Shown here: one piece after another, positions 21,042 to 41,866 of the stretch
How positions within the stretch are numbered: position 1 is the first letter of the stretch
Layout: each line of letters opens with the position of its first letter
Assembly: GCA_963638555.1 (NCBI GenBank)
Contig: CAVHQU010000004.1
Span: forward strand, 65,993-129,992
Source: a bacterium
GTDB lineage: Bacteria; Bacillota_I; Bacilli_A; RFN20; CAG-826
Length of the DNA stretch: 64,000 bases
Direction of reading: 5' to 3'
Notes under the pieces: generated by a model
Database searches by the model: none
What the model saw: only the letters and a program-made list of their open reading frames with translations
Told to the model about the DNA's origin: nothing
Program-made: the position numbers and the translations under genes

Positions 21042-22355
21042 ATGGAAGAAAAAGAATTATTAAAACAACCGCCAGTGTCTAAGAGAGCTCTCTCTTTTAT
21101 TATTGATTTTGTCCTGGCATTTATTATCGGAAATATCTTGAATAGTTTCGTTACTAGCACTTATTTGTTTAAAGCAATGGGAGGAAATGATTATCAGCAA
21201 GATTATTATTCGTTTGCGGCTGATTCAGGTTTGGTAAACTCAACGAAAAACGATGACGGTTCTATTAAAACAATCTATTTATATGCATATGCTCCGGATG
21301 GAAAAGAAAATACAACTTTGCAATATGTTGCAACTCCTAATGGCGAATTCGCATATGAAGCGTATTTAAATATTGTTTGGAATTATTATACCTCTTTCTA
21401 TCCGACTGATTCCCGTATGGTTCAACCTGATGGATATACGTATAAACAAGATGAGTTAGATGATTACAAAAAATATGTTTATACAGAAGTTTTCCTTCTT
21501 CCTGATCCAACAACAATTGAAGGAAAAACCGACGTTACTTTAACATCAAGTGATTCTACCCAAACATATTTCCAATATGCCACAAATGAAGATGGGACAC
21601 CTAATTTAACTGTTATGCCAGTTTTGACAGATTCAACTAAGAAAGATTTAGAAGATTCTACAAAAAAAACTGCTACGTTAACAAACCTTCGCGATTATTT
21701 TATTGGAATTAGTGAATCATCAAATTCAATTTCAATATCTGGGACTGGTATTTATTACAAAGCTGCTCTCCATATGGAAGGGCAATCTGGATCAAACCAA
21801 ACTTACTTTACAAATATTTACACAAAAGTAACTTGGATTAGTTGGGAATGCTCCCTTGTTGCCTTATTGCCAATCTATTTCATACTCTTCTATTTGATAC
21901 CTGTATGCGATAAAAAAGGCAGAAGCATTGGCAAATACATCTTTGGTTTAGCCGTAGTGAATAAAGACGGAACATATATGAAAGCGTGGCAAAGATTCCT
22001 TAGACCTCTCTTCTTGTTACTTATTTGCGCTTGCACCTTGATTCCTAATAACGCTATAAGCATTCTTGTGTTTGGCATCGTCTGCTTGCTTGACTTTGGC
22101 TTCGTGGCCTTTGGAAAAACGTGTCAATCATTGCATGATAAGATTTTCAAAACGAATGTTGTTGCAAACAAAAAATCCATCATTTTCAAAACATTGGACG
22201 AGAAACAATCGTATTTAGCAGAAGAAGAAAAGAAAGCCGAAATAAAACCAGCAAGAGTTCCATCAACTGGAAATATGATTGATTTATCAGTTCATGATGA
22301 GCCGACTGAAGAAACCTCTAACGAAGAATCATCTGAAACAAAGAAAGAAGACTAA
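21042..22355 (+). CDS. RDD-family membrane protein with a ~230-aa extracytoplasmic insert and an acidic C-terminal tail
   Basis: RDD signatures: RxxA..IDxxL at the N-terminus (KRALSFIIDFVL), GRSIGKYIFGLAVV, and C-terminal QSLHDKIFKTNVV. A long Ser/Thr/Asn/Tyr-rich loop lies between TM1 and TM2. Confidence 0.75.
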   Translation: MEEKELLKQPPVSKRALSFIIDFVLAFIIGNILNSFVTSTYLFKAMGGNDYQQDYYSFAADSGLVNSTKNDDGSIKTIYLYAYAPDGKENTTLQYVATPNGEFAYEAYLNIVWNYYTSFYPTDSRMVQPDGYTYKQDELDDYKKYVYTEVFLLPDPTTIEGKTDVTLTSSDSTQTYFQYATNEDGTPNLTVMPVLTDSTKKDLEDSTKKTATLTNLRDYFIGISESSNSISISGTGIYYKAALHMEGQSGSNQTYFTNIYTKVTWISWECSLVALLPIYFILFYLIPVCDKKGRSIGKYIFGLAVVNKDGTYMKAWQRFLRPLFLLLICACTLIPNNAISILVFGIVCLLDFGFVAFGKTCQSLHDKIFKTNVVANKKSIIFKTLDEKQSYLAEEEKKAEIKPARVPSTGNMIDLSVHDEPTEETSNEESSETKKED

Positions 22356-22372
22356 CCTACGTGGTTAGTCTT
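22348..22372. terminator. Bidirectional hairpin terminator between convergent genes
   Basis: AAGACTAACC...GGTTAGTCTT followed by TTTTTT. It spans the stop codons of both the RDD gene and the minus-strand HTH gene. Confidence 0.4.
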
Positions 22373-22591
22373 TTTTAAATAATATATGTTCTCTTTCCTG
22401 TTGTAGTAGAGTTCATCTTCTGAATGAGTTTTCTTTAGATATAACCTGATACTTGAAATATAACGCTTGAATGAAACCTCATTGATTAGACATCTTTCCA
22501 TGATATCTTTCTTTGTGATTATTTCTCCATCAATCAATTTCTTGTATATATAGAGAACAGTATCGATTTTGCTAAAAACTCTCTTTTTCAT
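22352..22591 (-). CDS. Small stand-alone winged-HTH protein (resembles a DeoR/WYL-type N-terminal HTH)
   Basis: 79 aa. TVLYIYKKLIDGEIITKKDIMERCLINEVSFKRYISSIRLYL looks like an HTH_11-type DNA-binding domain. Transcribed divergently from the large OB-fold lipoprotein gene. Confidence 0.45.
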   Translation of the reverse strand: MKKRVFSKIDTVLYIYKKLIDGEIITKKDIMERCLINEVSFKRYISSIRLYLKKTHSEDELYYNRKENIYYLKKTNHVG

Positions 22592-22816
22592 CTACTTAGA
22601 TTTTAACAATGTTCAAATCTTTTTACAATTTTTCAAATTCTTTAGTATTCCTAAGTTATTTTTCTTGCTAGAATATCTCTTGGGAAAACGCTTTCCCAGC
22701 AAAATAACAAACGACACCCCCGTTTCCTGAAGGAAAAGAAAAATTAAAACGTTTCGCTACTTTTTGTTGACGTTCCGGGTGTTTTTCATTTTTGTTGGAA
22801 TAGAAAGGGTTATTTA

Positions 22817-24937
22817 ATGAAAACAAAAAAACTTTGCCTATTAGCTTTAGGCAGCATTCTTATGCTTGGAAGCTGTGGAGAAAACAATTCATCAGTTAAT
22901 GAGTCTTCTTCAGTTGCATCTTCAGAATCATCATCTGTTTCTTCTGAAATCTCCTCTCAAACTTCAAGCAGCCAATCTTCCTCATACGACTTTGACTACG
23001 ATTTAACGACAATCGCAGAAGCAATCGAAATTGCTAAGCAAAACTCAACTACCACAACAACACGTTATTACATCTTTGGCACAATCACGGCTATCTCAAA
23101 TTACACATATGGCCAAATGACGATTAAAGATGATACGGGTTCTATTGAAGCATATGGCACATATTCAGCTGATGGCGTTAGCCGTTATTCCGAATTAGAA
23201 AACAAACCACAAGTTGGTGATATGGTCGTTCTTTATGCCAATCTCAATAATTATAAAGACACTCCACAAATCTACTCTGGATGGATTGTTTGGCAAAAAA
23301 GCGTCGAAAAAGAATTTGATGAGAGCGACTATTCTGCAAAAACAATTGCTGAAGCAAGAGAAATGACGACTGGTTCCCTAGTTAAGGTCACAGGTGTCGT
23401 TACGAGAAAAACATATGCTAATGGCATGGTTGAATCTGGATTCTATGTTATCGATGAAACATCATCAATCTACATTCATTCATCTGCAGCCGCTTCTCAA
23501 GTAAGCGAAGGCAATAAAATCACAGTTTGTGGCGCTCTTGATTTTTGGATTCTTGATTCCGAAAAGACAAGTGCTGCTAAAGCTGGCTATCAAGGATCTT
23601 GCCAATTGTCAGACGTTACAATCACGCAAAATGATAAATTAACTACAAATACCTATGATAAATCTTGGATTGAAGAAACGACAATCAAAGATATCATGGA
23701 CACACCTGCAACAAAGAATATTACCAATAAAGTCTATAAGGTTAATTCTTATGTCAAGAAAGTTGCAGGTACGGGTTTTACAAACTATTATTTCGATGAT
23801 ATTGATGGAACAACTGGTTCTTACACATACACACAATGTAACGGATCTGATTTCTCTTGGTTAGATGCGTTTGATGGAAAGATTTGCACAGTTTACTTAA
23901 CTGCAATCAATGCCAAATGCAATGCTGCTGGTGCAGTATGGCGTTTCATGCCAATCGAAGTCATTGATGAAGACTACACCTTTGATGCAGCAAACGTTAA
24001 TGAATATGTTTGGACATATCACGTTAAAGATTTATTCAGAGAACTTTATACTGGTGATCCAGTCCTTGAAGTTCCAACAAGCGTTTCCTCTGAATTATTA
24101 GGATTCAGCGGCGCTACGATTACCTATACTTCAAGCAACACAAATGTTGCCACATTTGAAACTGAAGAAGGAAAGACAATCTTCCATATCAAAGGCGTTG
24201 CAGGAGATTCTACAATCACAGTTAATATTGATTATGGTACAAATGCCACTTTAACAAAGACATTCACCGTTGCTTATTCAGAAGCTACATATGATGATGC
24301 AATAACAGTTAAAGAAGCAATTGATGCAGAAAATGGCGAAGAAATTACCGTTAAAGGCGTTGCTGGTCCATCTCTAGTTAATCAAGATGGTTTCTATCTC
24401 ATCGATGAAACAGGCGTTATTGCGGTTAAGACGACATCTGATGCTTTAGCTGAAATCTCCTTAGGAAATGAAGTTGTTTTCAAAGGAACCAAGAAAGAAG
24501 GATATGGTATTAAAGAAGGATCAACGTCTGCTGGGCAATCCTGTTTGTTAGACTCTTCTCTTGTTGCTAACTTATACGGTAAGCACGAATATTCTAGAGA
24601 TACATTCATCACTGGAAAAACTCTTGCTGATATCTACAATTTAGATGCAACAGTTGATCATTCTACTGAAGTTTATACAGTTACCGCTAAGATTCAAAAG
24701 ACTGAAACGACATACTATTCACAAATCGCACTTGTTGATGGTGACACAAAACTTTCTCTTTATTGTTCTAGCGCAAACCAATATAACTGGTTAGCAAACG
24801 CCTTTGCTGAAGGAAGCGAAGTTACTTTAGACATTGCTCCATGCAATTGGAATAGCAAGAAGTTTTGGACTGGTTGCGTTCTTTCTGCAAGCGATGGTAC
24901 AACAAGAGTCGATAATACTCTTAATTACAGCAAATAA
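22817..24937 (+). CDS. Surface lipoprotein with four OB-fold-like modules and one Big_2 Ig-like domain
   Basis: Lipobox LMLGSCGEN followed by a Ser-rich linker. The TIAEA...VKVTGVV...GFYVIDETSSIYI motif recurs four times, resembling the nucleic-acid-binding OB folds of extracellular nucleases. A Big_2 block (TITYTSSNTNVATFE...) is also present. Confidence 0.75.
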   Translation: MKTKKLCLLALGSILMLGSCGENNSSVNESSSVASSESSSVSSEISSQTSSSQSSSYDFDYDLTTIAEAIEIAKQNSTTTTTRYYIFGTITAISNYTYGQMTIKDDTGSIEAYGTYSADGVSRYSELENKPQVGDMVVLYANLNNYKDTPQIYSGWIVWQKSVEKEFDESDYSAKTIAEAREMTTGSLVKVTGVVTRKTYANGMVESGFYVIDETSSIYIHSSAAASQVSEGNKITVCGALDFWILDSEKTSAAKAGYQGSCQLSDVTITQNDKLTTNTYDKSWIEETTIKDIMDTPATKNITNKVYKVNSYVKKVAGTGFTNYYFDDIDGTTGSYTYTQCNGSDFSWLDAFDGKICTVYLTAINAKCNAAGAVWRFMPIEVIDEDYTFDAANVNEYVWTYHVKDLFRELYTGDPVLEVPTSVSSELLGFSGATITYTSSNTNVATFETEEGKTIFHIKGVAGDSTITVNIDYGTNATLTKTFTVAYSEATYDDAITVKEAIDAENGEEITVKGVAGPSLVNQDGFYLIDETGVIAVKTTSDALAEISLGNEVVFKGTKKEGYGIKEGSTSAGQSCLLDSSLVANLYGKHEYSRDTFITGKTLADIYNLDATVDHSTEVYTVTAKIQKTETTYYSQIALVDGDTKLSLYCSSANQYNWLANAFAEGSEVTLDIAPCNWNSKKFWTGCVLSASDGTTRVDNTLNYSK

Positions 24938-24949: not shown

Positions 24950-24980
24950 AGACGGGGCTAGAAATAGCCTCGTTTTTCTT
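24950..24980 (+). terminator. Hairpin plus U-tract after the OB-fold lipoprotein gene
   Basis: ACGGGGCT-agaaat-AGCCTCGT followed by TTTTTC. Confidence 0.4.
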
Positions 24981-25015
24981 TTGAGTATTTGAATATTTTA
25001 TTTATAATAAAAACC

Positions 25016-26200
25016 ATGCCAAAAGATTATGTCGAAAAAGTAGAAAATAGAACTGATGAGAATGGCGTATTAATCGTTAGAGGCTCACCTTTAAGAAGAA
25101 TCCTTGCTGAGTTGGCCGATATCTTAACCGCCTTTATTTTAGCAATCACGATTTATGGCGTTGGCTTCCAAAAGCTTTTCGGCTATGACTATTACTCTAA
25201 TCAGATGTCGAATGTTTCATCGCAAATGGTTTCCTGCATGGTTGATAAAAATCTGTATAAGCAAAGCAACAATGGTTCAACTCTTCTTAAAGCGGATCTT
25301 TTTGAATATTGGTCTTATTATTACCTTTCAAAAACGAATGATGCCTATGTCGGAAAAGAAATATATGAGCCAATTAAAGATTATTACACCCTAAGCAGAG
25401 TTGGCTCTTCCAATATGAGCCAGTTCCAATTCAATACTGAGATTCTTAAATTACCTTCAACGATAGATGGTTCATATGAAAATACGGTATTCATGTATGA
25501 TTCTAACGTTAAGGACCCTCTAAATTCTGAGCCTATATTCAATTTAGATATTCAAACAAATCTTAATAAATATTATTTAGGAAACACTGATGCATATGAG
25601 CCAAAGAATGCCTATGATACGATGTCAACTTTCTTCACCAATGCATATGATGTCGCCTTTTCCGAAGCGGTCAAGGATGAGACGTATAAGAATTTGGTTT
25701 TAGAATTTGCATCAAATATGTGGACGCGTTCTTATTTGCAATCGGCCGCCATACTTTCTTCATATTTGCTTGGTGCTATTATAACTTTCTTGCTTGTTCC
25801 ATTAATTCAATTGAGCGGCTTAACTTTAGGCAAAAGAGTTGCTAAGCTTCAAGTTAACGATATCAAGGGAGAAAAACCGCATTGGTACTCTTTCCTGATT
25901 AGAGGCTTGGTTCAAATAATATGTTATTGTTTCATGATACCTTTTATTGGCGTAATGTCATATGGATTCGGCGCTTTTGAAATGCCGTTATTGGAAATTG
26001 GCTCCTTTAGCTTGAATTTATCTACATTTGCCATCGTTGGTCTATTATTGGCCGTGGCTTCTTTAATTATGCTATTTGTTACCCCAGGAAAACAATCGTT
26101 GCATGATTTAGCTTCATTGACATACGTAAATACGTCCGATATTAAAAAGATTCGTGATGAAGAAGCGAAATTAGAGAAAAAAGAAGATGGAAGAGACTAA
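25016..26200 (+). CDS. RDD-family membrane protein with a large extracytoplasmic insert (second paralog)
   Basis: RDD signatures LRRILAELADIL, GLTLGKRVAKLQV and QSLHDLASLTYV. The ORF track begins at a TTG at 24989. The first ATG is 27 nt downstream. The start is uncertain. Confidence 0.7.
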   Translation: MPKDYVEKVENRTDENGVLIVRGSPLRRILAELADILTAFILAITIYGVGFQKLFGYDYYSNQMSNVSSQMVSCMVDKNLYKQSNNGSTLLKADLFEYWSYYYLSKTNDAYVGKEIYEPIKDYYTLSRVGSSNMSQFQFNTEILKLPSTIDGSYENTVFMYDSNVKDPLNSEPIFNLDIQTNLNKYYLGNTDAYEPKNAYDTMSTFFTNAYDVAFSEAVKDETYKNLVLEFASNMWTRSYLQSAAILSSYLLGAIITFLLVPLIQLSGLTLGKRVAKLQVNDIKGEKPHWYSFLIRGLVQIICYCFMIPFIGVMSYGFGAFEMPLLEIGSFSLNLSTFAIVGLLLAVASLIMLFVTPGKQSLHDLASLTYVNTSDIKKIRDEEAKLEKKEDGRD

Positions 26201-27245
26201 GGAAAAGAAAACATTGGAATATTTCAAAGCACCATTTGGCAAAAGGATGGTTGCCATCATAATGGAAATATTGATGCTCGCCTTTGGCACGTTTGCCTTT
26301 CTTTTTTGCTCACGTTTGATCGTGGAACAGATGCCATTATACACTGATTCATTTAATATTTATGTGCAAATTTCCAAAGATTCAGGCTTATACGTATGCG
26401 ATGAATCTACTGAAAACAACCTCGTTACGTTAACTGAATATTATGGCAGCAAGACCTATGAAGTTCAAAATAACACAATAGAGGAAGCCTTAACGAAGTT
26501 TTATACCCTTGAAGAATTTTTTTCACAAGATCCATCTAACGAAAATTACGGCCCAAATATTTATTACAAACAAAAAATAGGCGAGACATGTATTACTTCT
26601 GATGACGGAAACAAGTATTTCATGCTTGACGCAAGTGGTACACCCCAAAAGAATCCATCTCTTACCGAAGTGAAGATGAACTCATTTTATTTAACTGCAT
26701 ATGACAAAGCTGTCGCCTATATTCAAAATAACGAAAATTACCTTCAAGCGAGAAATGTTTTAACGATATACATCAACCTTGTTTTGATACCTCTCTCCAT
26801 TACTTTGTCGTTCTTGGTTTTTGAATTGCTGATTCCTATGACCATTGGAAGAAGAGGCAAACAGACTCTTTCTATGAAATGCATGAAACTCTCTTTGCTT
26901 TCCTCTAACGCTCTTTCTTGCACGGCTAAAAGATATCTTGGAAGGCAAATGATTCAATTGTTCTTGATTGTTTTGCTTTCGCTAGTCTCTTTTGGCATAC
27001 CTCTAATCGTTTCATTCTCGATGATGATATTTAGAAAAGATGGTCAATGTCTTCATGATTACCTTGCTGGTACCTATATGGTTGATTCGTCTGAGCAATC
27101 TGTTTATTACACTTATCAAGAGATGGAAAAATTGCAGAAGAAAGCTGAGGATAGAGATAGCAATCCTCTATTGCCACCAAGAAAGGATGATAGAAGCGCC
27201 CCGCTTGGCAATGATTCCATTTGGCGTAATTTACGTGACAAGTAG
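26187..27245 (+). CDS. RDD-family membrane protein with a large extracytoplasmic insert (third paralog)
   Basis: RDD signatures FGKRMVAIIMEIL, GRRGKQTLSMKCM and GQCLHDYLAGTYMV. Overlaps the previous gene by 14 nt. Confidence 0.75.
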   Translation: MEETKEKKTLEYFKAPFGKRMVAIIMEILMLAFGTFAFLFCSRLIVEQMPLYTDSFNIYVQISKDSGLYVCDESTENNLVTLTEYYGSKTYEVQNNTIEEALTKFYTLEEFFSQDPSNENYGPNIYYKQKIGETCITSDDGNKYFMLDASGTPQKNPSLTEVKMNSFYLTAYDKAVAYIQNNENYLQARNVLTIYINLVLIPLSITLSFLVFELLIPMTIGRRGKQTLSMKCMKLSLLSSNALSCTAKRYLGRQMIQLFLIVLLSLVSFGIPLIVSFSMMIFRKDGQCLHDYLAGTYMVDSSEQSVYYTYQEMEKLQKKAEDRDSNPLLPPRKDDRSAPLGNDSIWRNLRDK

Positions 27246-27358
27246 TAATGTATTCGCTTACATTTTCGAAGAACTCTATTTGTAAAAAATAGTAGACTTG
27301 AATTAGAGCAAGTTTTCTCTTAAAATCAGTAATGCAAGATATATGATTGGAGACGCTC

Positions 27359-28516
27359 ATGGAGATTAGACTCAAAAATCTTACCAAATGCTTCCCAGGA
27401 AACCCAAAGAAGGGAATTCCTGATACTTATGCTGTGAAGTCTTTGGACGTTACAATCCCTGATGGGAAATTAGTTGGTCTTTTAGGTCCTTCTGGATGTG
27501 GCAAATCAACAACCCTTTACATGGTTGCTGGTCTTTTAGAACCTACTGAAGGCGAAATTTGGTTCGGTGATGAAGATGTTACCGATCTTGAACCAGAAAA
27601 GAGAGGAATTGGTTTAGTTTTCCAGAACTACGCTCTTTACCCTCATATGACCGTCTACAAGAATGTTGCTTTCCCTCTTACCAATCTTCGTATCGAAGAA
27701 AAAGTTTTAGATGATGATGGCAATGAAGTTTTTGATGAAACTGGAAAGCCATACATCAAAAAGAGAAAGCTCACGAAAGATGAGATTGACAAAGTCGTCC
27801 GTGAGACAGCCAAGATAGTTCAAATTGAAGAATATTTAGAAAGAAAACCAAATCAATTATCTGGTGGTCAACAACAGCGCGTTGCTATTGCTAGAGCCTT
27901 AGTAAAGAAACCTAAAGTTCTTTTACTTGATGAACCTCTTTCTAACTTAGATGCGCGTTTGAGACTCCAAACACGTGAAGAAATCAGAAGAATTCAACAA
28001 TCTACTGGAATTACCACAATATTCGTTACACACGACCAAGAAGAAGCGATGTCCATTTCTGATGAAATCGTTGTCATGAAGCTTGGCGTTGAACAACAAC
28101 GCGGTGTTCCACAAGACGTTTATAACAATCCTTGCAATAAATTCGTTGCAAATTTCTTAGGCACCCCACCAATTAACCTTTTCAAAGGCCGCATCCAAGG
28201 CAATAAGGTTTATATTGGTGATCAAGTCGTCCGTGAAATCACGGAAAAAGAAGTGCCTGATCAAGATTGCACAGTTGGCATCCGCCCAGAAGGTATTGTC
28301 GTTGATCCAAAAGGAACATTTACATTCAATTGTGAACGCATCCTAACAATGGGCCGTGATATCATGCTCGCTTCTGAACACCCTGAAGCAGTTTCCAACA
28401 TCAAATTTGTCGTTGATGCTTTCGTTGAAGTCTCAACCGGCGAAGTTCATGCTTCTGTCAAACCTCATAAATGCTTTGCCTTCTCTCTTGAAGGAAATGA
28501 GGAGAGGATTATCTAA
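27359..28516 (+). CDS. CUT1-family ABC importer ATP-binding protein (MalK/UgpC/MsmX-like)
   Basis: Walker A GPSGCGKST, signature LSGGQQQRV, Walker B LLLDEP, and a C-terminal TOBE-like regulatory domain. About 35 extra residues follow the Q-loop. Start moved to ATG 27359 (MEIRLKNL). Confidence 0.9.
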   Translation: MEIRLKNLTKCFPGNPKKGIPDTYAVKSLDVTIPDGKLVGLLGPSGCGKSTTLYMVAGLLEPTEGEIWFGDEDVTDLEPEKRGIGLVFQNYALYPHMTVYKNVAFPLTNLRIEEKVLDDDGNEVFDETGKPYIKKRKLTKDEIDKVVRETAKIVQIEEYLERKPNQLSGGQQQRVAIARALVKKPKVLLLDEPLSNLDARLRLQTREEIRRIQQSTGITTIFVTHDQEEAMSISDEIVVMKLGVEQQRGVPQDVYNNPCNKFVANFLGTPPINLFKGRIQGNKVYIGDQVVREITEKEVPDQDCTVGIRPEGIVVDPKGTFTFNCERILTMGRDIMLASEHPEAVSNIKFVVDAFVEVSTGEVHASVKPHKCFAFSLEGNEERII

Positions 28517-30658: not shown

Positions 30659-30724
30659 GCCTTCAAATTGGTTACAGTTCGTAAGAATGTAATATAAAAA
30701 TTAGATTAGAAAATGGAGAAAAAA

Positions 30725-33668: not shown

Positions 33669-35174
33669 ATGAAAATGAAAAAGAAATTAATTGGTTGCTT
33701 GCTTTCAGGCCTCTTCCTTTGCTCGGTAGCATCCTGCGGTAGCAATGATTCTAGCAATACAGCCCCAAGTTCCGAAACCCAAACATCATCTAAAACTGAT
33801 GAAGTGGTTTCATCCAGCTCTGAGCAAACTCAATTCGTTGATTATACAGCCACAACAAAATTAACTTATGATTACACCGGTAAAGAATTCTTAAAAGATG
33901 GTATCGGTGAAGTTACATTGGTCACAAAAGTTGATGGCGATACAGCTCATTTCAAATCTAAAACAGGCTCTTCTGGCACAATCAAAGGCAGATACAACTG
34001 CATTGATACACCTGAATCCACAGGTATGATCGAGCCATGGGGCCATGGCGCATCAGAATACAATGGCAAACTTCTTTCTGAAGCAAAGCATATCGTTTTA
34101 ACCACAGATAAAGCAGATTCAACCTCTGGACCAGCTCTTGATTCCACTGGTGGAAGATATCTCGTATATGTTTGGGTTGCCAATGTTGAAAATCCAACAT
34201 TAGATGATTTTATCAATGTTAACCTTGCTATTTGCCAAGAAGGATATTCCAAAGCAAAAGGCGTTTCTGGAAAAGAATATGCCGATGCGTTCCTTAACGC
34301 TGATATCCAAGCAAAAGCCTTCCAACTTCATGTTTGGAGCGATGAACAAGACCCGGATTATAACTATTCTGATCCAGTCAAGATTGACTTACGCATGATT
34401 GTCGAAGGATTTGATTCTGAAGGTAATGAATACGACTGGGTTGGTTCAAAAGTAACATTCAACGCTTATGTTGCAGGTGTTGGCCCTGATGCTGGCGCCG
34501 CATATGTCTGCGATGATGTCACATGGACCGACACAGATGGAGAACATACTCAAAGATATGGTATGTATATCTTCACGCAATATATTGTTTATGCTCCATT
34601 ACAAACAATTGGAAACTACCTTGAAATTTCAGGTACGGTTTCCGAATACAACGGAACATTACAAGTCGTAGATGTCTCTTATTCACCATATTATCCAGAT
34701 GATTATGATATTAAAGTCATCTCAACTGGTCATACTGACAAAGTTCAACCATTCACTGGATCTGCTGGAACATTTGCATCAGACAAGTATGTCAACACGA
34801 TGGTAACAGTTGATCTTGTTTGCACAGGCGGGTATGCAACTCTTAATACTGCAACATCCACTGCATATGCTTTCACTTTATATTGCCATGATAAAAACAA
34901 TACTTCAGAACAATTAAATATCCGTATTGCTGATTCAATCGCTATCAACTATCCAGGTACATTATCTCGTATCCAAGATTGTATCCCATTCTGGAAAGGT
35001 GAAAAATCCATTGCCGAAGCACTTAATAATGGCAAGAACACCGATTCTAGAAAGGTTGAATACATAACAATTACCGGAGCCGTAGTCAAATATGTCACTA
35101 CATCTGGTAAGACCACATACCAGGTCAATCTTACAAAGAAAGCAGATTTGACCCTTCACATGAGTGAAGAATAA
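33669..35174 (+). CDS. Surface lipoprotein nuclease, staphylococcal-thermonuclease (SNase) family, with a C-terminal beta-rich extension
   Basis: Lipobox VASCGSN. SNase catalytic and Ca-binding core VDGDTAHF...GRYNCIDTPE...GGRYLVYVW...N..L...G.AK, ending ...DPDYNY. About 250 further residues follow. Confidence 0.8.
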   Translation: MKMKKKLIGCLLSGLFLCSVASCGSNDSSNTAPSSETQTSSKTDEVVSSSSEQTQFVDYTATTKLTYDYTGKEFLKDGIGEVTLVTKVDGDTAHFKSKTGSSGTIKGRYNCIDTPESTGMIEPWGHGASEYNGKLLSEAKHIVLTTDKADSTSGPALDSTGGRYLVYVWVANVENPTLDDFINVNLAICQEGYSKAKGVSGKEYADAFLNADIQAKAFQLHVWSDEQDPDYNYSDPVKIDLRMIVEGFDSEGNEYDWVGSKVTFNAYVAGVGPDAGAAYVCDDVTWTDTDGEHTQRYGMYIFTQYIVYAPLQTIGNYLEISGTVSEYNGTLQVVDVSYSPYYPDDYDIKVISTGHTDKVQPFTGSAGTFASDKYVNTMVTVDLVCTGGYATLNTATSTAYAFTLYCHDKNNTSEQLNIRIADSIAINYPGTLSRIQDCIPFWKGEKSIAEALNNGKNTDSRKVEYITITGAVVKYVTTSGKTTYQVNLTKKADLTLHMSEE

Positions 35175-35207
35175 TTAGGTTTTATCTTCAGGAAGGAGAA
35201 ATTATAA

Positions 35208-37598
35208 ATGAAGAAAAAAATAAACATCTTAGTATTGGCTTCCGCCTTTGCTATGCTCGGACTCACAGCTTGTGGAACAACCACAGATTCCACTGCTAGT
35301 TCCGAAGCTGCCTCTTCACAAGCAGCATCTAGCTCATCATCAGCTGACGTTTGCGCGCTTACAGATGAGATCGTATCTCTTGCAGAAAAGGCCTACAATG
35401 GCGTTGCTACAACATATAGCAGCTGGTCATCTTCTGGTGTTACAGGCAACCAAACATTAACTGGTTCAGCAAAGAAGACGAATACTGATGGAACAAAGAC
35501 ATATAACTTTGATCTTATCTACTCCATCGATGCCAAATATTCTGACAACTTAACAATCCTTGGTGACACACTCGTTGTCACATGCCCAAATTCCTTAAAG
35601 GGTGGCACAGACGTTCAAGCAAAAGTTCACGTCCAAGTTTTATTAGATGGCTGTGATGAAGTCGCTTATGAAACGGATATCAATGTTTTAGTTAAAGCAA
35701 TCGCCCAAATGGATTTAGCCTACATCTATTCCACCGATGAAAATGGTGACAAGGTTGTTAAAAACAATTCCTCCGTTTCCTTCAATGCTATTTATATGGG
35801 TATGTATCCTTCACAAGGTGCAATCTTTGGCGATGGCGAATATGCAATTCTTGCTTATAAGACAACTTCGCTTGATGAAAGTATCAAAGTTGGTGATGCA
35901 GTTGCCGTTACAGGTACAATCTCCGATTACAGCGGTCTCCGTGAACTTTCTTCAAGCGGCACAACAGTCACAAAACTCACAGATAGACCAGCAGATCTCA
36001 AAGATCCAGTCACTCTTGATTTCTCATCCACAACAGCCCGTGCTTTAAAATGGGGCGACGACAATAGATATGCCTCCATTACTGGCGCTAAAGTCACAAA
36101 CGTTTCTAACTCTTCCTCCGGTAACCTCACCGTTACAGTTTCTTTAAACGGAAACTCTTATGCAGTCTTCATGAATGCAACATATTCTGCTGATGTTATC
36201 GACTCTTGGAAACATACAAGAAGTGGTGCAGAAGAAGCAACAGTTGTCGAAGCTGGCGATATCGTTTCCTTTACAGGTTATGTCTCCGCTTATAACAATG
36301 TCTATCAATTCGTTTATGGCGATTGCACATCCTGGGAAGAAGCTCCTATCTCCGTTTCTGCTCCATCTCAATTACTCGTTAACGAAACTGGCAAGATCAC
36401 CACAACATTAAGAGGTGGTGTTGTTCCAACAACAGTCACATATTCTTCTTCCAATTCCGAAGTTGTCTCCGTTTCTGATGATGGAACAGTCAAGGGCTTA
36501 AAGAAAGGTGAAGCAACAATCACCGTTACAGCCACTGGCACAGTTGATAACGAAACAGTCACAAAGACTGATTCAGTCACAATTACTGTTGCTGAAATCG
36601 CACCTGTTAAAAAGACAATTGCTGAACTCAATGCTCTTGTTGCTGCTGAAACAGACACATCTTCCTATGCTTGGTTTACAGATGATATCTATCAAGTTAC
36701 CGGTATCTTCGAAGGATATACTGGTGATGCATATGGCAATGGCTATCTAACTGATGCCACAACTGGCGAAACAATCAAGATCTATGGTCTTTCTGGCACA
36801 GCCAACAATGGCTTCACATATACTTCTGGAAAATGGTCTTATAGCAATCCAAAAGATGCCGCTACAACATTAGCCGATGTCAAGAATGGTGAAGAAGTCA
36901 CATTAAACGTCATGCTTGAAAATGCTAAAGGCACAGCCAACATCGCTGGTTCTGTTATCTCCCATACAACATCCACAAACACATATGCTTCAACAATCTC
37001 TGTTGGCGAGCATGGTACAGCCGCATTAAGCTCAACTGATGCAGCCGCTTATGGCACAAAGATCACTGTCACAGCAACTCCAGCTGATGGATACGTTGTT
37101 GATTCAGTCAAAGTTAAGACAGCCTATGGCACAACAACTCTTGATGCAGCAGAAGATGGAACATATTCCTACACTGTTACATGCAAGAATGAAGTCACTG
37201 TTTCTTTCAAAGAGAAACCAGTTGCTGGTGCAGAAACGACAGTCACATTAGGAGTTTCTGATTTCACGGCTGTTTCAACGGCTGGCGCAATAGATCAAAC
37301 CGTTAAAGGCTTTAGATTTGAAATAAGCAATGGATTAATTTCCAGCGAAATTAGGCTCTACCAAAATAAGACGATCACTATTAGTACTACACTTGGTACA
37401 ATGACAAAGATTGTGTTTACTACCGCTTCCAGTAAACCAGCATCCGGATTCGGAACCGACAATGCAGATTTAACGATTTCAAGCGATAAATTAACTGCTA
37501 CATGGGCACCTGCAACGGGTGCAAATACCGTTACTTTGACGGCCGCTTCTGCACAAGTTAGAATTACCGCTATTGCAATTACTTATAAGGTTGCTTAA
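35208..37598 (+). CDS. Large multidomain surface lipoprotein (OB-fold-like modules plus Big_2)
   Basis: Lipobox LTACGTT and a Ser/Ala-rich linker. OB-like blocks (AVAVTGTISDYSGLREL, IVSFTGYVSAYNNVYQF, YQVTGIFEGYTGDAYGNGYL) and a Big_2 block (TVTYSSSNSEVVSVSDDGTVKGLKKGEATITVTA). Confidence 0.7.
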   Translation: MKKKINILVLASAFAMLGLTACGTTTDSTASSEAASSQAASSSSSADVCALTDEIVSLAEKAYNGVATTYSSWSSSGVTGNQTLTGSAKKTNTDGTKTYNFDLIYSIDAKYSDNLTILGDTLVVTCPNSLKGGTDVQAKVHVQVLLDGCDEVAYETDINVLVKAIAQMDLAYIYSTDENGDKVVKNNSSVSFNAIYMGMYPSQGAIFGDGEYAILAYKTTSLDESIKVGDAVAVTGTISDYSGLRELSSSGTTVTKLTDRPADLKDPVTLDFSSTTARALKWGDDNRYASITGAKVTNVSNSSSGNLTVTVSLNGNSYAVFMNATYSADVIDSWKHTRSGAEEATVVEAGDIVSFTGYVSAYNNVYQFVYGDCTSWEEAPISVSAPSQLLVNETGKITTTLRGGVVPTTVTYSSSNSEVVSVSDDGTVKGLKKGEATITVTATGTVDNETVTKTDSVTITVAEIAPVKKTIAELNALVAAETDTSSYAWFTDDIYQVTGIFEGYTGDAYGNGYLTDATTGETIKIYGLSGTANNGFTYTSGKWSYSNPKDAATTLADVKNGEEVTLNVMLENAKGTANIAGSVISHTTSTNTYASTISVGEHGTAALSSTDAAAYGTKITVTATPADGYVVDSVKVKTAYGTTTLDAAEDGTYSYTVTCKNEVTVSFKEKPVAGAETTVTLGVSDFTAVSTAGAIDQTVKGFRFEISNGLISSEIRLYQNKTITISTTLGTMTKIVFTTASSKPASGFGTDNADLTISSDKLTATWAPATGANTVTLTAASAQVRITAIAITYKVA

Positions 37599-37615: not shown

Positions 37616-37645
37616 AGCCCTTTCTTAACTGAAAGGGCTTTTTCA
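37616..37645 (+). terminator. Rho-independent terminator
   Basis: AGCCCTTTC-ttaact-GAAAGGGCT followed by TTTTT. Confidence 0.55.
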
Positions 37646-37712: not shown

Positions 37713-38537
37713 ATGAATAAGATAGTGAAAACATTAATAATTCCATTCTCAATCCTAACTTTAGTTGGATGTAATGGAACTACTGCATCGGAAACATCCG
37801 ATAACTCTTCTACGGAAGTCTCTTCTAGCGTTGAAGGAAATAACAATTTAAGCATAGCCCTTGACTGGTTCATTGGTAGCGTCAATACGGTTGCGGCTTA
37901 TAATTTCTTTGATGCAACAGCAAAGCCAAGAGCAACATCAGTTTTCTTGGAAGATGGTTGCTACACTACATATCGTAATTTTACAAACCTCGAAAATACT
38001 GGTTTGATCAACATCTCCTCCGCTTTAGCGACCAAATATGGTCTTGAAGAAGGAGTCTATTCTTGGACTAAGGAAAATTCCTCTTTAGCCATTGGAAGCA
38101 AAGTTGGTGAAGGAACATATCAAGATCTTTATCACTATCCAATGGAGATTGCCGTAAACAAAACAGATTACATTCACTCTTTTCATCATGAATCTGAAAA
38201 CGAAAAAACAGACTCTAAAGCAGAAAACAAACTAACTGATTCCGCTAAGAGTTTATTAAATGGCTATTTCACATTAAATAAAATATTCAAAGACGAAGAT
38301 TCAGAAAAGATGCTTATGAGCTTTGCTAAATCATTAGGCGTTTATGAAATTCTTACTCAAGCCGATATGGAACTTAATTATGCAAAAATCTATTTCGGTC
38401 CAAGTGCTAATACTATGAATGTTACCTTCTATACTCAATATAGAGGAGGCTATTCTTCGTACGAAACAACCGTTACATGTTCTCAATTTGGCACAGCAAA
38501 GATTGCCGAATTAACATCTTACATTGAGGCTGAATGA
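37713..38537 (+). CDS. Lipoprotein of unknown function
   Basis: Lipobox LTLVGCNGT and a Ser-rich linker. 274 aa. ATGA overlap with the downstream nuclease gene. Confidence 0.6.
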   Translation: MNKIVKTLIIPFSILTLVGCNGTTASETSDNSSTEVSSSVEGNNNLSIALDWFIGSVNTVAAYNFFDATAKPRATSVFLEDGCYTTYRNFTNLENTGLINISSALATKYGLEEGVYSWTKENSSLAIGSKVGEGTYQDLYHYPMEIAVNKTDYIHSFHHESENEKTDSKAENKLTDSAKSLLNGYFTLNKIFKDEDSEKMLMSFAKSLGVYEILTQADMELNYAKIYFGPSANTMNVTFYTQYRGGYSSYETTVTCSQFGTAKIAELTSYIEAE

Positions 38538-39754
38538 TGAAGAAAAAGGCAGGCTTACTATCTTTATTTGCTGTAACTCTTCTTTTTTCCTGCGGAAAAA
38601 AAACTAACGTTGCCTCCTCAAAAGATGAAACTTCTTCCTCCATTGAGGAGATTTCTTCTTCAACAAATGGAGGGCTTACTTTTAAGTCTGGCTCATCCTT
38701 GATATTCACAGAATTTTTCAAAGGAAGCTTTACTTCAGATAGAGCCATTGAAATTGGCAATATCGGAAATTCCTCGATCGATTTAAGCAAATATTCAATC
38801 GTCATTTATAAATCTGGTTCATATGACAATCCCTACGAGATTAAACTAAGCGGAACGTTAGATGCGAAATCCACGTATGTTATCGCTTATAAAAATGCTA
38901 ATGAATCAATCAAAAATGCTGCTAATCAACTAGATGATGAACTTCCAAATATTGGTTCATATCCGATGATTATTACGGATGGAACATATTTCTATGACAC
39001 ATTAGGCACATTAGGCTATTCGATTTCTTACTGTGGTGATCTTGATTTAGTCAGAAAAAATGAATACATGGTCGGGCAAGAAAAGTTCGAAGCCTATGAT
39101 TGGATTGGCTACTCAAATACAGAATATTCACGTTTAGGCGTTCTTGAATGCCCTCTTTCTGAAGAAGAACTCCTTGAAGGTCCAAGAATTGATGAACCAT
39201 ATAAAAATTCTTCATTCTTTAAAGAAGGCTCCACAACACTTGGTGGTGGAGGATATATCGATGTCACCGTTAAATCATTAGTTGATGGTGATACGACTAA
39301 ATTCTATTATCCCGACGAAGTTAACAACGCCGGATATCCAGATGGTACAAGCGTTCGTTATGAAAACATCGATACGCCAGAAATATACCATGGTGGAAAT
39401 TCCCCTGCAGATCCTTGGGGTGATGCAGCTAAAGATTTCACCAATGGCTTATTAAACAAAGCTAAACGCATAAGACTTCAATCTTTACCAGATGTCTCGA
39501 TCACTGAAACATATGGCAGATTGTTGCTCTATGTTTGGGCTTCAAATGAAGATAGTGGTGATGATTCATTCTACATGGTCAATCACCAAATAGTCTTAAA
39601 TGGCTATTCTAATGTAGCATTCTCTGGGGATACATCTTCAAAGATGCTCTACAAAGGAATCTCTTATTATCAATTCCTTATCGATGCACAAAATAAAGCA
39701 GCAAAAGAAGGATTGAAGATACATGGCGAAAAAGATCCTAATTACAATTATTAA
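38534..39754 (+). CDS. Lipoprotein nuclease: lamin-tail-like domain fused to an SNase thermonuclease domain
   Basis: Lipobox LLFSCGKK. LTD-like block LIFTEFFKGSFTSDRAIEIGNIGNSSIDLSKYSIVIY. SNase core LVDGDTTKFYY...VRYENIDTPE...YGRLLLYVWA, ending ...DPNYNY like the first nuclease. Confidence 0.8.
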   Translation: MMKKKAGLLSLFAVTLLFSCGKKTNVASSKDETSSSIEEISSSTNGGLTFKSGSSLIFTEFFKGSFTSDRAIEIGNIGNSSIDLSKYSIVIYKSGSYDNPYEIKLSGTLDAKSTYVIAYKNANESIKNAANQLDDELPNIGSYPMIITDGTYFYDTLGTLGYSISYCGDLDLVRKNEYMVGQEKFEAYDWIGYSNTEYSRLGVLECPLSEEELLEGPRIDEPYKNSSFFKEGSTTLGGGGYIDVTVKSLVDGDTTKFYYPDEVNNAGYPDGTSVRYENIDTPEIYHGGNSPADPWGDAAKDFTNGLLNKAKRIRLQSLPDVSITETYGRLLLYVWASNEDSGDDSFYMVNHQIVLNGYSNVAFSGDTSSKMLYKGISYYQFLIDAQNKAAKEGLKIHGEKDPNYNY

Positions 39755-39769
39755 AGAAGGAGAAGAGGT

Positions 39770-40327
39770 ATGAAAACATATTGCAAAGAATGTTTGAAAA
39801 AGAATAAAAGCTCCACTGGAGTATGTCCTCATTGTGGAAATGAGATGGTAACGACTCTTAATGGTGAAGAAGAAATCAGACCTTTTGTTCAAAAATTGCA
39901 CAAAAGAACAAATGATTTAAGACACTATATTAGTCATTCCTTATCATCTGTTGTCATTGGAGCGATATTATTAGTCATTGCTTTCTTCTTCTATTATCTT
40001 TCCTTCACATCTTCGACTGATCCTGACACATCTGAAAAAATATATGTCGTCAACACTGGATGCTCTGAATTCTGGGTTTCCATGGTTGCTTTAGCGATTG
40101 GCGGAGTCGCCTTCCTTGCTGGTGTCATCATCTCTTTTGTAATTTATCGTCAAAAGAGACAAGTTTTAGCTGATATTGATCATATTCGTGAAACCGGTAA
40201 CTTAGAAACAAAGCCAGTTAAATTGGTTATTGTTGTCTGGTTTGAAAAACTTATCGCATCAATAAAACACCTTATTTGGGTTAGTAAATACAAGAAATCC
40301 CACAAGGCAAAAAAGGAGGACAAATAG
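39770..40327 (+). CDS. Zinc-ribbon membrane protein (CxxC...CxxC N-terminus, 2 TM)
   Basis: CKEC...CPHCG in the first 25 residues, two hydrophobic helices, Lys-rich C-terminus. Confidence 0.55.
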   Translation: MKTYCKECLKKNKSSTGVCPHCGNEMVTTLNGEEEIRPFVQKLHKRTNDLRHYISHSLSSVVIGAILLVIAFFFYYLSFTSSTDPDTSEKIYVVNTGCSEFWVSMVALAIGGVAFLAGVIISFVIYRQKRQVLADIDHIRETGNLETKPVKLVIVVWFEKLIASIKHLIWVSKYKKSHKAKKEDK

Positions 40328-40328
40328 T

Positions 40329-41027
40329 ATGGCAAAGAATTTAGTCTCTACCCTTGAAGAAGACAATTTTCATGAAGAAAACAAAAGATTCTTCTCATTC
40401 GATAAAGAAACATTAAAAAGACCTGGCGTCATTCTCCGTTTATTGGCAATACTCGTCTGTTTGGTTGCCATAATCCTTACGGTTGTCCTTCCTACAGTCA
40501 CGATTGAATATAAGTTCTATTCATCCTCGTCGGAATTTGACAATGCTAGAGCTTTGCTTTTTCCTGCCGAAACAATTTATGGACCTAATGCTTTATTTGG
40601 CGGTGGATATTTCGCGATGTATTTCAAGAGCAACATTATCAAAGGCGTTCACGTCCTTTCTTCCGTTCAAGCTCAATTCAACTGGATTTTATTCATCTTG
40701 TTGATCTTCATGGTTGCATTTATGGTTCTTGGCTTGTTTGTTACATTCACGAAGAAGATGGAAAAATTCTCCAAATTAACAACCTTAGGATTTGCCATTG
40801 GCGCATTTGCTGCTATAGCATCTCCTGTTTGGTTCATGGTCACTAATAATATTGGTAATGATTATGCCGTTTCGACCACGACTTTGACAAGATATTGGAC
40901 TTACGATTCTTTTTATTGTCATTGTTCTTGGGGAGCAATTGTTGCTGCTATTGTCTTTATTATTGCAGCCGTCTTGTTTGGCGTTGGAAGTGGCTTAGAA
41001 AACAAAGGTGGAGAAAGAGGTAGATAA
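40329..41027 (+). CDS. Polytopic membrane protein (about 4 TM), unknown function
   Basis: Four hydrophobic segments. Starts 2 nt after the previous gene. Confidence 0.55.
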   Translation: MAKNLVSTLEEDNFHEENKRFFSFDKETLKRPGVILRLLAILVCLVAIILTVVLPTVTIEYKFYSSSSEFDNARALLFPAETIYGPNALFGGGYFAMYFKSNIIKGVHVLSSVQAQFNWILFILLIFMVAFMVLGLFVTFTKKMEKFSKLTTLGFAIGAFAAIASPVWFMVTNNIGNDYAVSTTTLTRYWTYDSFYCHCSWGAIVAAIVFIIAAVLFGVGSGLENKGGERGR

Positions 41028-41029
41028 TT

Positions 41030-41866
41030 ATGAAAAAGAACTTAATATTAGGCTTAGCATCTTTAATGCTTCTCTCCTCTTGCGGAATTAACTCTTTTGG
41101 CAAGGAAATTACATCGTTAGATGATTTTGTCATGATTTATAAAGATTCTGACGATGATTTCAATGTTGTTAAAGCAAATCGCGTCTTCTCAAGATCAGAT
41201 AAGGCACCAGATGCTGATTTAACGCCAAGCAATCTTCCGAATCATAATGCTGAAATCTATTCAGGAAATGATTTTATCTATGAAGAAACGACTAAATATA
41301 CTGGATTCACTATTCAATATGATGTGGATACGTATTTCCTTGTTGAAGGCGATAAGAATGGTATCGTTTCCACAGATCCTGATGACATCAACGCGTATCG
41401 CTTAGCGGCTCGTTCAATCATTGATACGGATTATCAAACAGTCTTATCCGTATATGATTATATGAAAAAATTCATTGGAAAAACCGGAACTGCAGAAATT
41501 GATAACACTTCCTACACGAACGTTTCTCTAACATTTGCCGATGCAAATACGACTATCGGATACACGCTTAAATATACTTATCAAAATGGTAACGGTTCTC
41601 GCACGGAAGAACGTTACATAACTCTTGATGACGTTGGCAATAAGAAATGGGGAGTCACATTCTATTCCGAACGTATTACAGATACTATTGATGGTGAAGA
41701 GTTCTATTATGTCACGGAATATCAATTCTCTTGTGTAAATGATGAAACGTTGAATAAGAAAACCTTAGCGGCAAAAAACAATCTATCAACATTTACCTTT
41801 ACAGCAAAAGGGCTTACCGATGGCGACGTTTCTCTCGATGGCGATGTTCCATTAACAAAGAAATAA
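41030..41866 (+). CDS. Lipoprotein of unknown function
   Basis: Lipobox LLSSCGIN. 278 aa. Last gene of the tightly packed run that begins at 37713. Confidence 0.6.
   Translation: MKKNLILGLASLMLLSSCGINSFGKEITSLDDFVMIYKDSDDDFNVVKANRVFSRSDKAPDADLTPSNLPNHNAEIYSGNDFIYEETTKYTGFTIQYDVDTYFLVEGDKNGIVSTDPDDINAYRLAARSIIDTDYQTVLSVYDYMKKFIGKTGTAEIDNTSYTNVSLTFADANTTIGYTLKYTYQNGNGSRTEERYITLDDVGNKKWGVTFYSERITDTIDGEEFYYVTEYQFSCVNDETLNKKTLAAKNNLSTFTFTAKGLTDGDVSLDGDVPLTKK

Follow-up and report, generated by a model that had tools for sequence, protein, structure and literature searches.

A conserved chromosomal locus of a gut Bacilli lineage with a likely role in scavenging nucleic acids at the cell surface

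Here, we describe a gene locus at positions 21042-41866 of a 64,000-nucleotide stretch of contig CAVHQU010000004.1 (assembly GCA_963638555.1); the whole stretch is hereafter referred to as the window. The locus is framed by fusA-tuf on its 5' side and by tRNA-Lys, then nifJ, on its 3' side. Both flanks, which had been named in an earlier note made from the DNA letters (hereafter the original prediction), were located: tuf occupies 19694-20911 and tRNA-Lys 41925-42000. The list of open reading frames (ORFs) gives 17 genes between tuf and tRNA-Lys, 16 on the + strand and one on the - strand. The gene positions of the original prediction stand, but its count of 19 genes, 18 of them on the + strand, does not, and instead of three lipoproteins without an assigned function we find two, at 37713-38537 and 41030-41866. 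The content of the locus, the predicted folds of its products and the conservation of its gene order make it likely, in our view, that a gut Bacilli lineage of the wall-less type, represented by uncultured 'Mollicutes/Bacilli' metagenome-assembled genomes (MAGs), has here a conserved chromosomal locus for the scavenging of nucleic acids. The genes, with lengths in amino acids (aa) and transmembrane segments abbreviated TM, are as follows.

21042..22355, + strand: RDD1, RDD-family membrane protein, 437 aa (Pfam RDD, 61.6 bits)
22352..22591, - strand: small gene, 79 aa, function unassigned; the sole minus-strand gene of the locus (ORF list)
22817..24937, + strand: OBlp1, 706-aa lipoprotein with an OB fold, a tandem-OB unit, an Ig-like domain and a second tandem-OB unit
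24989..26200, + strand: RDD2, RDD-family membrane protein, first gene of the main predicted operon (Pfam RDD, 53.7 bits)
26187..27245, + strand: RDD3, RDD-family membrane protein (Pfam RDD, 35.8 bits)
27347..28516, + strand: ABC importer ATPase, MalK/UgpC-like (Pfam ABC_tran, 128 bits; OB_MalK; CysA_C_terminal)
28519..29607, + strand: ABC importer permease 1 (Pfam BPD_transp_1, 74.2 bits)
29609..30658, + strand: ABC importer permease 2 (Pfam BPD_transp_1, 67.7 bits)
30713..32179, + strand: SBP1, substrate-binding lipoprotein (Pfam SBP_bac_8, 117 bits; SBP_bac_1)
32254..33651, + strand: SBP2, substrate-binding lipoprotein paralogous to SBP1 (Pfam SBP_bac_8, 129 bits)
33669..35174, + strand: SNaseOB, lipoprotein with an SNase domain followed by two OB folds (Pfam SNase)
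35208..37598, + strand: OBlp2, 796-aa lipoprotein, last gene of the main predicted operon (Pfam Big_2, 31.7 bits; Flg_new_2, 25.2 bits; weak OB)
37713..38537, + strand: lp3, lipoprotein, function unassigned, first gene of the second predicted operon (lipobox LVGC)
38534..39754, + strand: LTD-SNase, 406-aa lipoprotein nuclease with an ExeM-like lamin-tail N-terminal region and an SNase domain (Pfam, NCBIfam)
39770..40327, + strand: ZnTM, with an N-terminal CxxC...CxxC zinc ribbon and two TM segments (sequence, TM prediction)
40329..41027, + strand: TM4, four-TM membrane protein, function unassigned (four predicted hydrophobic segments)
41030..41866, + strand: lp4, lipoprotein, function unassigned, final gene of the locus (lipobox LSSC)

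In its main parts this inventory agrees with the original prediction. The three RDD-family membrane paralogs all score above the Pfam cut-off; the complete CUT1 ABC importer and its two paralogous binding lipoproteins were recovered by Pfam in every part; the two SNase-family lipoprotein nucleases, one with a lamin-tail-like domain, were recognised by Pfam SNase and an ExeM match; and the two giant lipoproteins of repeated OB-like modules and Ig domains are supported by a structural model, by profile comparison and, in the 796-aa protein, by Pfam Big_2. The zinc-ribbon membrane protein and the four-TM protein are both present. Among the domain families that had been proposed, SNase, RDD and SBP exceed their Pfam cut-offs, whereas LTD lies just under its cut-off and OB below.

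The gene layout suggests five transcription units. Strong terminator-like hairpins were found at four places only: 20944-20965, 3' of tuf; 22348-22372, where a bidirectional hairpin stands at the junction of RDD1 and the small gene; 24950-24975, 3' of OBlp1; and 37616-37639, 3' of OBlp2. Intergenic gaps range from -14 to 101 nt within 24989-37598, where the start of RDD3 overlaps the end of RDD2 by 14 nt, and from -4 to 15 nt within 37713-41866. RDD1, the small minus-strand gene and OBlp1 would each be transcribed alone. They would be followed by a likely 12.6-kb operon, RDD2-RDD3-ATPase-permease-permease-SBP1-SBP2-SNaseOB-OBlp2, and by a likely 4.2-kb operon, lp3-LTD-SNase-ZnTM-TM4-lp4. Co-transcription of the nuclease with the transporter is predicted because the gaps are short and no strong terminator lies within 24989-37598. 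A promoter scan found 55 sites, against 61 expected. Eight products of the locus have a signal peptide and a lipobox cysteine, read from the sequence, and lgt is found in the window at 54735-56558.

SNaseOB and LTD-SNase match Pfam SNase (PF00565, cut-off 21 bits) with 39.0 and 38.4 bits, respectively, and the SNase profile matches SNase structures in the PDB (E 1.4e-17); a test for the SNase fold was positive. SNaseOB has an SNase domain, at about residues 79-225, fused to two OB folds, at about 261-334 and 378-488; this fusion had been missed in the original prediction. The full-length architecture of SNaseOB defines a family of 501 clusters at 50% identity (E<=1e-30). Both nucleases were aligned with S. 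aureus nuclease A, and D21, R35, D40, T41, E43 and R87 are invariant in this three-way comparison. In the S. aureus enzyme, D21, D40 and T41 are Ca2+ ligands, and R35, E43 and R87 are catalytic. Residues D91, R108, T114, E116 and R163 are likewise invariant among 29 homologues. With these residues intact, both nucleases look active, and a Ca2+-dependent DNase/RNase activity is predicted for them. Enzymes of the SNase type release 3'-phosphomononucleotides together with dinucleotides or short oligonucleotides. The lamin tail of LTD-SNase scores 33.3 bits with Pfam LTD, just under the cut-off of 34.3. We accept this call because the N-terminal region also matches positions 13-176 of NCBIfam ExeM (E 1.6e-17). 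LTD-SNase is paired with the Zn-ribbon gene in the distant related loci L018, L022, L025, L028 and L058.

The transporter is of the CUT1 type, comprising a MalK-like ATPase, two BPD_transp_1 permeases and binding proteins of the SBP_bac_1/8 families. SBP1 and SBP2 are 49% identical. In NCBIfam, the best match of the ATPase is UgpC, with 349.5 bits against an equivalog cut-off of 432 and an alignment in two stretches; that of permease 1 is UgpA (85.7 bits, cut-off 335), and that of permease 2 is UgpE (94.6 bits, cut-off 297). The binding proteins match UgpB with 71.4 bits against a cut-off of 411, the match of SBP1 being weak. All four scores are below the NCBIfam cut-offs, so the transporter is not assigned to the UgpBAEC equivalogs. 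Both binding proteins also have weak matches to the NCBIfam family of mycoplasma P68 surface lipoproteins, with E values of 4e-8 for SBP1 and 1.5e-6 for SBP2. About 30 extra aa are inserted in the helical subdomain of the ATPase, past the Q-loop region. At the same site, the ATPases of relatives L018, L035-L039, L058 and L085 have insertions of about 150-270 aa, that of L085 reaching 488 aa in total length. The counterpart gene in M. bovis is reported to be 2103 bp long, which hints at a peculiarity common to both (PMC4045577).

The two giant lipoproteins have a different build. The predicted structure of OBlp1, with a pLDDT of 88.7, consists of an OB fold, a tandem OB, a seven-stranded Ig-like domain and a second tandem OB. 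Its best PDB matches by Foldseek are the HIN-200 proteins p204, AIM2 and IFI16, then RPA70, Teb1, LEF-3 and RADX, with E values from 1e-8 (p204) to about 1e-3 (AIM2); the differing arrangement of the domains keeps the TM-scores low. No catalytic domain or carbohydrate-binding module appeared near the top of this Foldseek search. The OB modules of the locus have the five-stranded barrel of the RPA/anticodon-binding type and resemble RPA, Ten1/Stn1, the anticodon domains of Asp/AsnRS, HIN-200 and RADX. The modules do not resemble carbohydrate-binding ones; as had been supposed, they are of nucleic-acid type, and by model comparison the folds belong to the nucleic-acid-binding superfamily. OBlp1 can be considered a candidate polymer (DNA) binding protein of the cell surface. 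Relatedness among the OB modules required profile-profile comparison, because BLASTP among them aligned only signal peptides; a PDB sequence search with OBlp1 gave no match. By this comparison, OBlp1 carries one unit in duplicate, at residues 168-374 and 489-688 (probability 98.6%), and the OBlp2 family is homologous to OBlp1 (hhalign probability 99.4%, E 3e-21, 455 columns). By their profiles, OBlp1 and OBlp2 are thus distant paralogs. OBlp2 contains OB modules, Big_2, an InlB-B-repeat-like domain and a C-terminal beta domain.

OBlp1 belongs to a large family, with more than 2363 matches. It is 45-53% identical to Clostridial proteins over 91% of its length and is far more conserved than its neighbours in the locus, which suggests strong constraint or lateral transfer. 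In three contexts of OBlp1 homologues, an EEP nuclease, or nucleoside hydrolase, PNP and pyr genes, can be found no more than 8 kb away; one further context is the same locus as in the window. As the linkage of OBlp1 to nucleases is inconsistent, we make no claim of it beyond this lineage, in which OBlp1 is a plausible, not an established, member of the system.

The three RDD proteins, with the scores given above, exceed the Pfam RDD (PF06271) cut-off of 24.1 bits. RDD1 has hydrophobic segments at 12-30, 270-288 and 325-343 and an extracytoplasmic insert of about 230 aa between TM1 and the RDD core; its position after tuf is also found in the related loci L088 and L089. In the same two loci, a minus-strand gene of 76-81 aa occupies the site that matches the small gene, whose product has no match in Pfam or NCBIfam. 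In L088, at 3313-5614, three extra genes stand between the small minus-strand gene and the OBlp1 homologue, one of which encodes a 553-aa LRR_5 protein. Neither Pfam nor NCBIfam assigns a family to lp3, ZnTM, TM4 or lp4; in Pfam, lp3 and lp4 have no match and TM4 has no significant one. ZnTM has its TM segments at 61-79 and 107-125. By ORF clustering, it is present in 24 related loci, mostly beside LTD-SNase, while lp3, TM4 and lp4 are confined to closer relatives, lp3 being kept together with its downstream genes in 16 loci and TM4 and lp4 in 15.

The arrangement of the locus is widely conserved. The profile of the SNase-2xOB protein was scanned against one genome per GTDB species; at least 599 stretches matched, of which at least 592 encode a relative of the nuclease, and the best 80 loci were analysed. 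These come from gut Bacilli/Mollicutes MAGs, Acholeplasmatales, Anaeroplasma bactoclasticum ATCC 27112 and many Clostridia MAGs, the latter labelled Oscillospiraceae, Christensenella, Lachnospiraceae and Eubacteriales. Synteny was counted from a tblastn map of all window proteins, because greedy ORF picking had given some wrong antisense calls in Clostridial loci of high GC (clusters c16, c17 and c19), and a locus was counted if it had at least 5.5 kb of upstream flank. In all 67 loci with enough flank, the genes ATPase-permease-permease-SBP lie directly upstream of the SNaseOB gene on the same strand, and this includes all 49 loci in which the nuclease is less than 40% identical to that of the window. 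The script scored 64 of the 67; in the other three, the ATPase is at the edge of its 6.5-kb search window. By ORF clustering, an RDD gene is present in 55 of the 80 loci, usually just 5' of the ATPase, and a large Ig/OB surface protein like OBlp2 in 54, directly 3' of the nuclease. The order [RDD]-ABC-SBP-SNaseOB-[OBlp2-like], in which the bracketed members are those that vary, is thus very strongly kept. Relatives at 58-85% identity have the full order of the window, with tuf-RDD1-small gene-OBlp1 included, and all 17 genes stand in the same order in relatives down to about 45% identity. The framing by tuf and nifJ is kept in L026 and L038, whose nucleases are about 35% identical to that of the window, and also in L088 and L089. 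The possibility that the genes are scattered in relatives, which the original prediction had named as evidence against it, does not hold: importer and SNaseOB are contiguous throughout the counted loci and the exact order is kept in relatives.

One cultured strain carries the core cassette, A. bactoclasticum ATCC 27112 (L054, 3674-16185), and the hypothesis is therefore directly testable. Where an RDD protein would be expected, this strain encodes a 423-aa membrane protein without a Pfam match, followed by the ABC genes, SBP, SNase, a 1234-aa aBig_2 protein and a 350-aa aBig_2/OB protein.

In Clostridial loci, the cassette is accompanied by genes of nucleotide catabolism. Nucleotide-metabolism genes, verified with Pfam, lie within 10 kb of it in 28 of the 80 loci. 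They include SurE (10 loci), tandem DHH/DHHA1 genes of the NrnA type (15 loci) and a fusion of NT5C with guanylate kinase (9 loci), and in 7 loci a secreted 5'-nucleotidase (Metallophos + 5_nucleotid_C) adjoins the cassette. Other neighbours are phosphopentomutase, cytidine deaminase, DeoC, pyrimidine and purine nucleoside phosphorylases, uridine kinase, Endonuclease I and a secreted Y_phosphatase3 lipoprotein. In the 15 loci where SurE or NrnA-like genes occur, the nucleases share a median of only 40% identity in pairwise comparison, so the association with these genes is old. NrnA degrades oligonucleotides of 2-5 residues and removes the 3'-phosphate from pAp, and SurE is a 3'/5'-nucleotidase. 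Because cytoplasmic enzymes of the SurE and NrnA types adjoin the importer, phosphorylated fragments are likely to enter the cell.

From these results, a mechanism can be proposed. The two membrane-anchored SNase lipoproteins would cut extracellular DNA or RNA at the cell surface into 3'-phosphorylated mononucleotides and short oligonucleotides. The polymer would be held at the surface by the OB folds of SNaseOB, by the lamin-tail region of LTD-SNase and by the two giant multi-OB/Ig lipoproteins. The fragments would be collected by the two paralogous binding lipoproteins and passed to the Ugp/CUT1-like ABC importer, with the RDD membrane proteins serving as conserved accessory parts. The imported cargo would probably be 3'-nucleotides or short oligonucleotides and not DNA, and the likeness to the phosphoester importer Ugp may fit a phosphorylated cargo. 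The original prediction spoke of the capture, cutting and import of DNA; scavenging by surface nucleases and an importer is supported by the OB folds and the synteny, whereas for import the breakdown products take the place of DNA itself. More tentatively, the seven-gene core, which we define as RDD, ATPase, two permeases, binding protein, SNase-2xOB and giant OB/Ig surface protein, could be a widespread and undescribed nucleic-acid utilisation locus of gut Firmicutes, in which the CUT1/Ugp-like ABC transporter would have a novel specificity and import phosphorylated fragments, 3'-nucleotides or 2-5-mers, enzymes of the SurE/NrnA type would process them inside, and the multi-OB lipoproteins would capture DNA by tandem OBs in the manner of HIN-200 and RPA. 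This wider version is a conjecture that could well be wrong.

Several observations weigh against the scavenging of nucleic acids. None of SurE, NrnA-like, deo or other salvage genes is found within the 64-kb window, and Rfam scans for a riboswitch or regulatory RNA that would name the ligand found only tRNAs. The PDB relatives of SBP2 are sugar binders and UgpB (best E 9e-17), the public annotation of its homologues is generic, sugar SBP or UgpB, and the closest characterised relatives of the binding proteins bind sugars or glycerol-3-phosphate. The Pfam OB (PF01336-like) matches, at 25.6 and 19.9 bits, stay below the cut-off of 27 bits; some homologues carry precomputed PF01336 matches. Folds of the YgiW/BOF type match the OB modules as well as those of the RPA type, and their ligands are other than nucleic acids; we know of no nucleic-acid binding by them. 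Outside this lineage, homologues of OBlp1 usually stand alone, and one or two of their contexts are beside alpha-amylase, MFS and glycoside hydrolase genes. Furthermore, the OB modules are acidic, with isoelectric points (pI) of 4.1-4.7, the OB lipoproteins having a pI of about 4.5; of the five OB segments that were scored, four have net charges from -5 to -13, and the second OB of SNaseOB has 0. S. aureus nuclease is a basic protein. The acidity of the OB modules is unlike that of basic DNA binders such as this nuclease and the HIN domains, and appears to count against simple electrostatic binding. All exported proteins of the locus are acidic (pI 4.1-4.9), both SNase domains included, which may reflect a lineage-wide property of the surface or substrate binding bridged by cations.

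Part of this evidence would also fit an ordinary importer of sugars or glycerophosphodiesters, Ugp-like, which stands beside nucleases of unrelated purpose. The OB/Ig lipoproteins would then be adhesins or glycan binders, and the nucleases would act in the remodelling of biofilm or extracellular DNA, in escape from host DNA traps or in competition. This alternative can draw on the best matches of all four transporter parts, which are UgpC/A/E/B and sugar systems, on the relatives of SBP2, on the acidity of the exported proteins, on the alpha-amylase context of an OBlp1 homologue and on the YgiW/BOF folds, but we consider it unlikely. The Ugp scores (349/432, 86/335, 95/297 and 71/411) are far under the equivalog cut-offs, and in 67 of 67 loci, across divergence at class level, importer and nuclease stand side by side in the same orientation, which is not accounted for by chance adjacency. 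Moreover, the Clostridial neighbours are genes of nucleotide catabolism, not sugar genes, and the homologous mycoplasma arrangement is co-transcribed (PMC3585158).

A second alternative is that the products are fully dephosphorylated outside the cell and that the ABC transporter imports nucleosides or deoxyribose, not phosphorylated fragments. In most bacteria, nucleotides lose their phosphates before they are taken up, the typical cargo of CUT1 systems is an uncharged sugar, and some related loci have a secreted 5'-nucleotidase or Y_phosphatase3 lipoprotein beside the cassette. However, the locus of the window encodes no secreted phosphatase, and its transporter parts resemble the phosphoester importer Ugp above any other characterised system. 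In 10-15 loci the cassette is flanked by cytoplasmic SurE and two oligonucleotidases of the NrnA type, and nucleoside import is disfavoured because such enzymes are useful only if phosphorylated fragments enter. We judge it improbable.

We give hardly any credence to a horizontally acquired island at tRNA-Lys or to a competence-like machine that imports intact DNA, and rejected both: a tRNA-Lys gene does abut the 3' end of the locus, a variable HepT/MntA toxin-antitoxin pair lies just past it and OBlp1 is unusually similar to Clostridial proteins, but the GC content of the locus (0.36-0.41) is like that of its flanks, Pfam scans found no integrase, transposase or repeats in it, the tuf...nifJ framing recurs in the four relatives named above, no Com protein (ComEA-like or ComEC-like) is present, and an ABC permease pair cannot pass polymeric DNA. 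In the original prediction the locus was called an island; in the sense of a mobile element this has to be given up, as composition, mobility genes and variable presence among relatives all fail to mark it as one. The locus is instead an old, vertically kept feature of the chromosome, because its tuf...nifJ position is kept in distant relatives, with which the ordinary GC content and the lack of mobility genes agree.

The pair past tRNA-Lys, at 42789-43542, consists of an HTH + nucleotidyltransferase (MntA-like) gene that overlaps a HepT-like RNase gene, between tRNA-Lys and nifJ, and resembles a toxin-antitoxin of type VII. As it is present in L001 and L002 and absent in L003-L005 and L008, the pair is a small insertion that varies among relatives. 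Elsewhere in the window, a tRNA-Pro at 51622-51698 has the anticodon AGG, in the anticodon loop TTAGGGA; a tRNA-Pro with A34 is unusual in bacteria. The lgt product has 607 aa, of which only residues 183-439 form the LGT domain, with long extra N- and C-terminal regions. Among the related loci, contigs of this Bacilli lineage (L001-L008, L049 and L080) are titled Escherichia coli, Bacteroides uniformis, Faecalibacterium prausnitzii, Alistipes communis and Parasutterella, and these MAG assemblies appear to be mislabelled.

The uptake of nucleotides and oligonucleotides by bacteria is poorly understood. For the nuclease-linked ABC transporter of mycoplasmas, the substrate is presented only as a hypothesis (PMC3585158, PMC12115388, PMC4045577) and has apparently never been determined. 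The present results suggest that what is seen in mycoplasmas represents one reduced version of a far wider and strongly conserved cassette, which is found in all of the best 80 species-level genomes, out of at least 592 with a relative of the nuclease, and is carried by uncultured gut Bacilli and Clostridia. They name its conserved and uncharacterised partners, namely the RDD proteins, the SNase-2xOB fusions and the tandem-OB surface proteins, and suggest that extracellular nucleic acid may be a significant gut nutrient for these lineages. The automated labels 'multiple sugar transport' and 'UgpB' are probably misleading for this transporter family. A literature search found no description of a cassette of thermonuclease, RDD, ABC and OB-fold genes, and a search on RF39 and nucleotide auxotrophy found nothing relevant.

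Among characterised transporters, UgpBAEC, an importer of polyol phosphoesters, is the best-scoring family for all four transporter parts. The locus differs from it in scores far under the equivalog cut-offs and in having a nuclease, not a glycerophosphodiesterase, as genomic partner. Among nucleases, YhcR of Bacillus subtilis is a wall-anchored enzyme with OB folds, an SNase domain and a 5'-nucleotidase domain. SNaseOB is similar to it in combining OB folds of the tRNA_anti-codon type with SNase on the cell surface, which in YhcR serves non-specific degradation of nucleic acids. Unlike YhcR, SNaseOB has its OB folds at the C-terminus, no fused 5'-nucleotidase, a lipid anchor and a place in the operon of an ABC importer. 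LTD-SNase shares the lamin-tail N-terminal region with ExeM/NucH of Shewanella, an extracellular nuclease that acts on extracellular DNA. However, its catalytic domain is SNase and not endonuclease/exonuclease/phosphatase, it is anchored by a lipobox and not by GlyGly-CTERM, and over the full length it scores 62.9 bits with ExeM, against a cut-off of 1300.

Candidatus Izemoplasmatales have been described as having 'DNA-degradation loci', which combine secreted nucleases with transporters (Wasmund et al. 2021, PMC8289736). These bacteria are also wall-less Bacilli relatives, free-living or from the gut, and their loci, interpreted as a specialisation for DNA foraging, likewise cluster secreted nucleases, some with lamin-tail and DNA-binding domains, with ABC and phosphate transporters (PMC8289736). 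Compared by description, they centre on other nucleases, phosphohydrolases and the Pst phosphate transporter, and the RDD/SNase-2xOB/CUT1 cassette is not reported for them (PMC8289736).

The closest resemblance is to the nuclease-ABC operons of mycoplasmas (M. agalactiae MAG_5030-5070, M. bovis MBOVPG45_0307-0311, M. gallisepticum MslA/MGA_0676 and M. hyopneumoniae mhp379). In M. agalactiae, the genes of the SBP-fold protein P80 (MAG_5030), the SNase lipoprotein MAG_5040, an ABC ATPase and two permeases are contiguous and co-transcribed (PMC3585158). This arrangement is conserved in the M. hominis group, and its authors propose import of nucleic-acid precursors (PMC3585158). MBOVPG45_0307-0311 of M. 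bovis have been called a putative nucleotide transporter operon, and M. gallisepticum MslA, a homologue of P81, binds DNA, whether single- or double-stranded (PMC4045577). According to a 2025 review, some of the nuclease and ABC genes are organised in operons (PMC12115388). The link between mycoplasma nucleases and ABC transporters, which the original prediction had put forward, is thus borne out by M. agalactiae and M. bovis (PMC3585158, PMC4045577). As in these operons, a surface SNase lipoprotein gene of the present locus is contiguous and co-oriented with those of a 'sugar-type' ABC ATPase, two permeases and an SBP-fold lipoprotein. The order is SBP, nuclease, ABC in mycoplasmas, whereas here it is ABC, SBP, nuclease, and the present locus has in addition two SBP paralogs, RDD proteins, two OB folds on the nuclease, a second nuclease (LTD-SNase), giant multi-OB/Ig lipoproteins and a membrane triad. 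Its host belongs to a gut commensal lineage with the standard genetic code, and the cassette is also present in walled Clostridia. The weak P68 matches of both binding proteins and a common tendency to ATPase insertions hint at kinship. By this analogy, the locus probably works like the mycoplasma nuclease-ABC scavenging operon and is likely related to it, in a much expanded and far more widespread form. Compared with the mycoplasma operons, the novelties would be the RDD proteins as partners, the fusion of SNase with two OB folds, the LTD-SNase together with the Zn-ribbon protein that accompanies it, the giant tandem-OB/Ig proteins, the doubling of the binding protein and, above all, the breadth into walled Clostridia.

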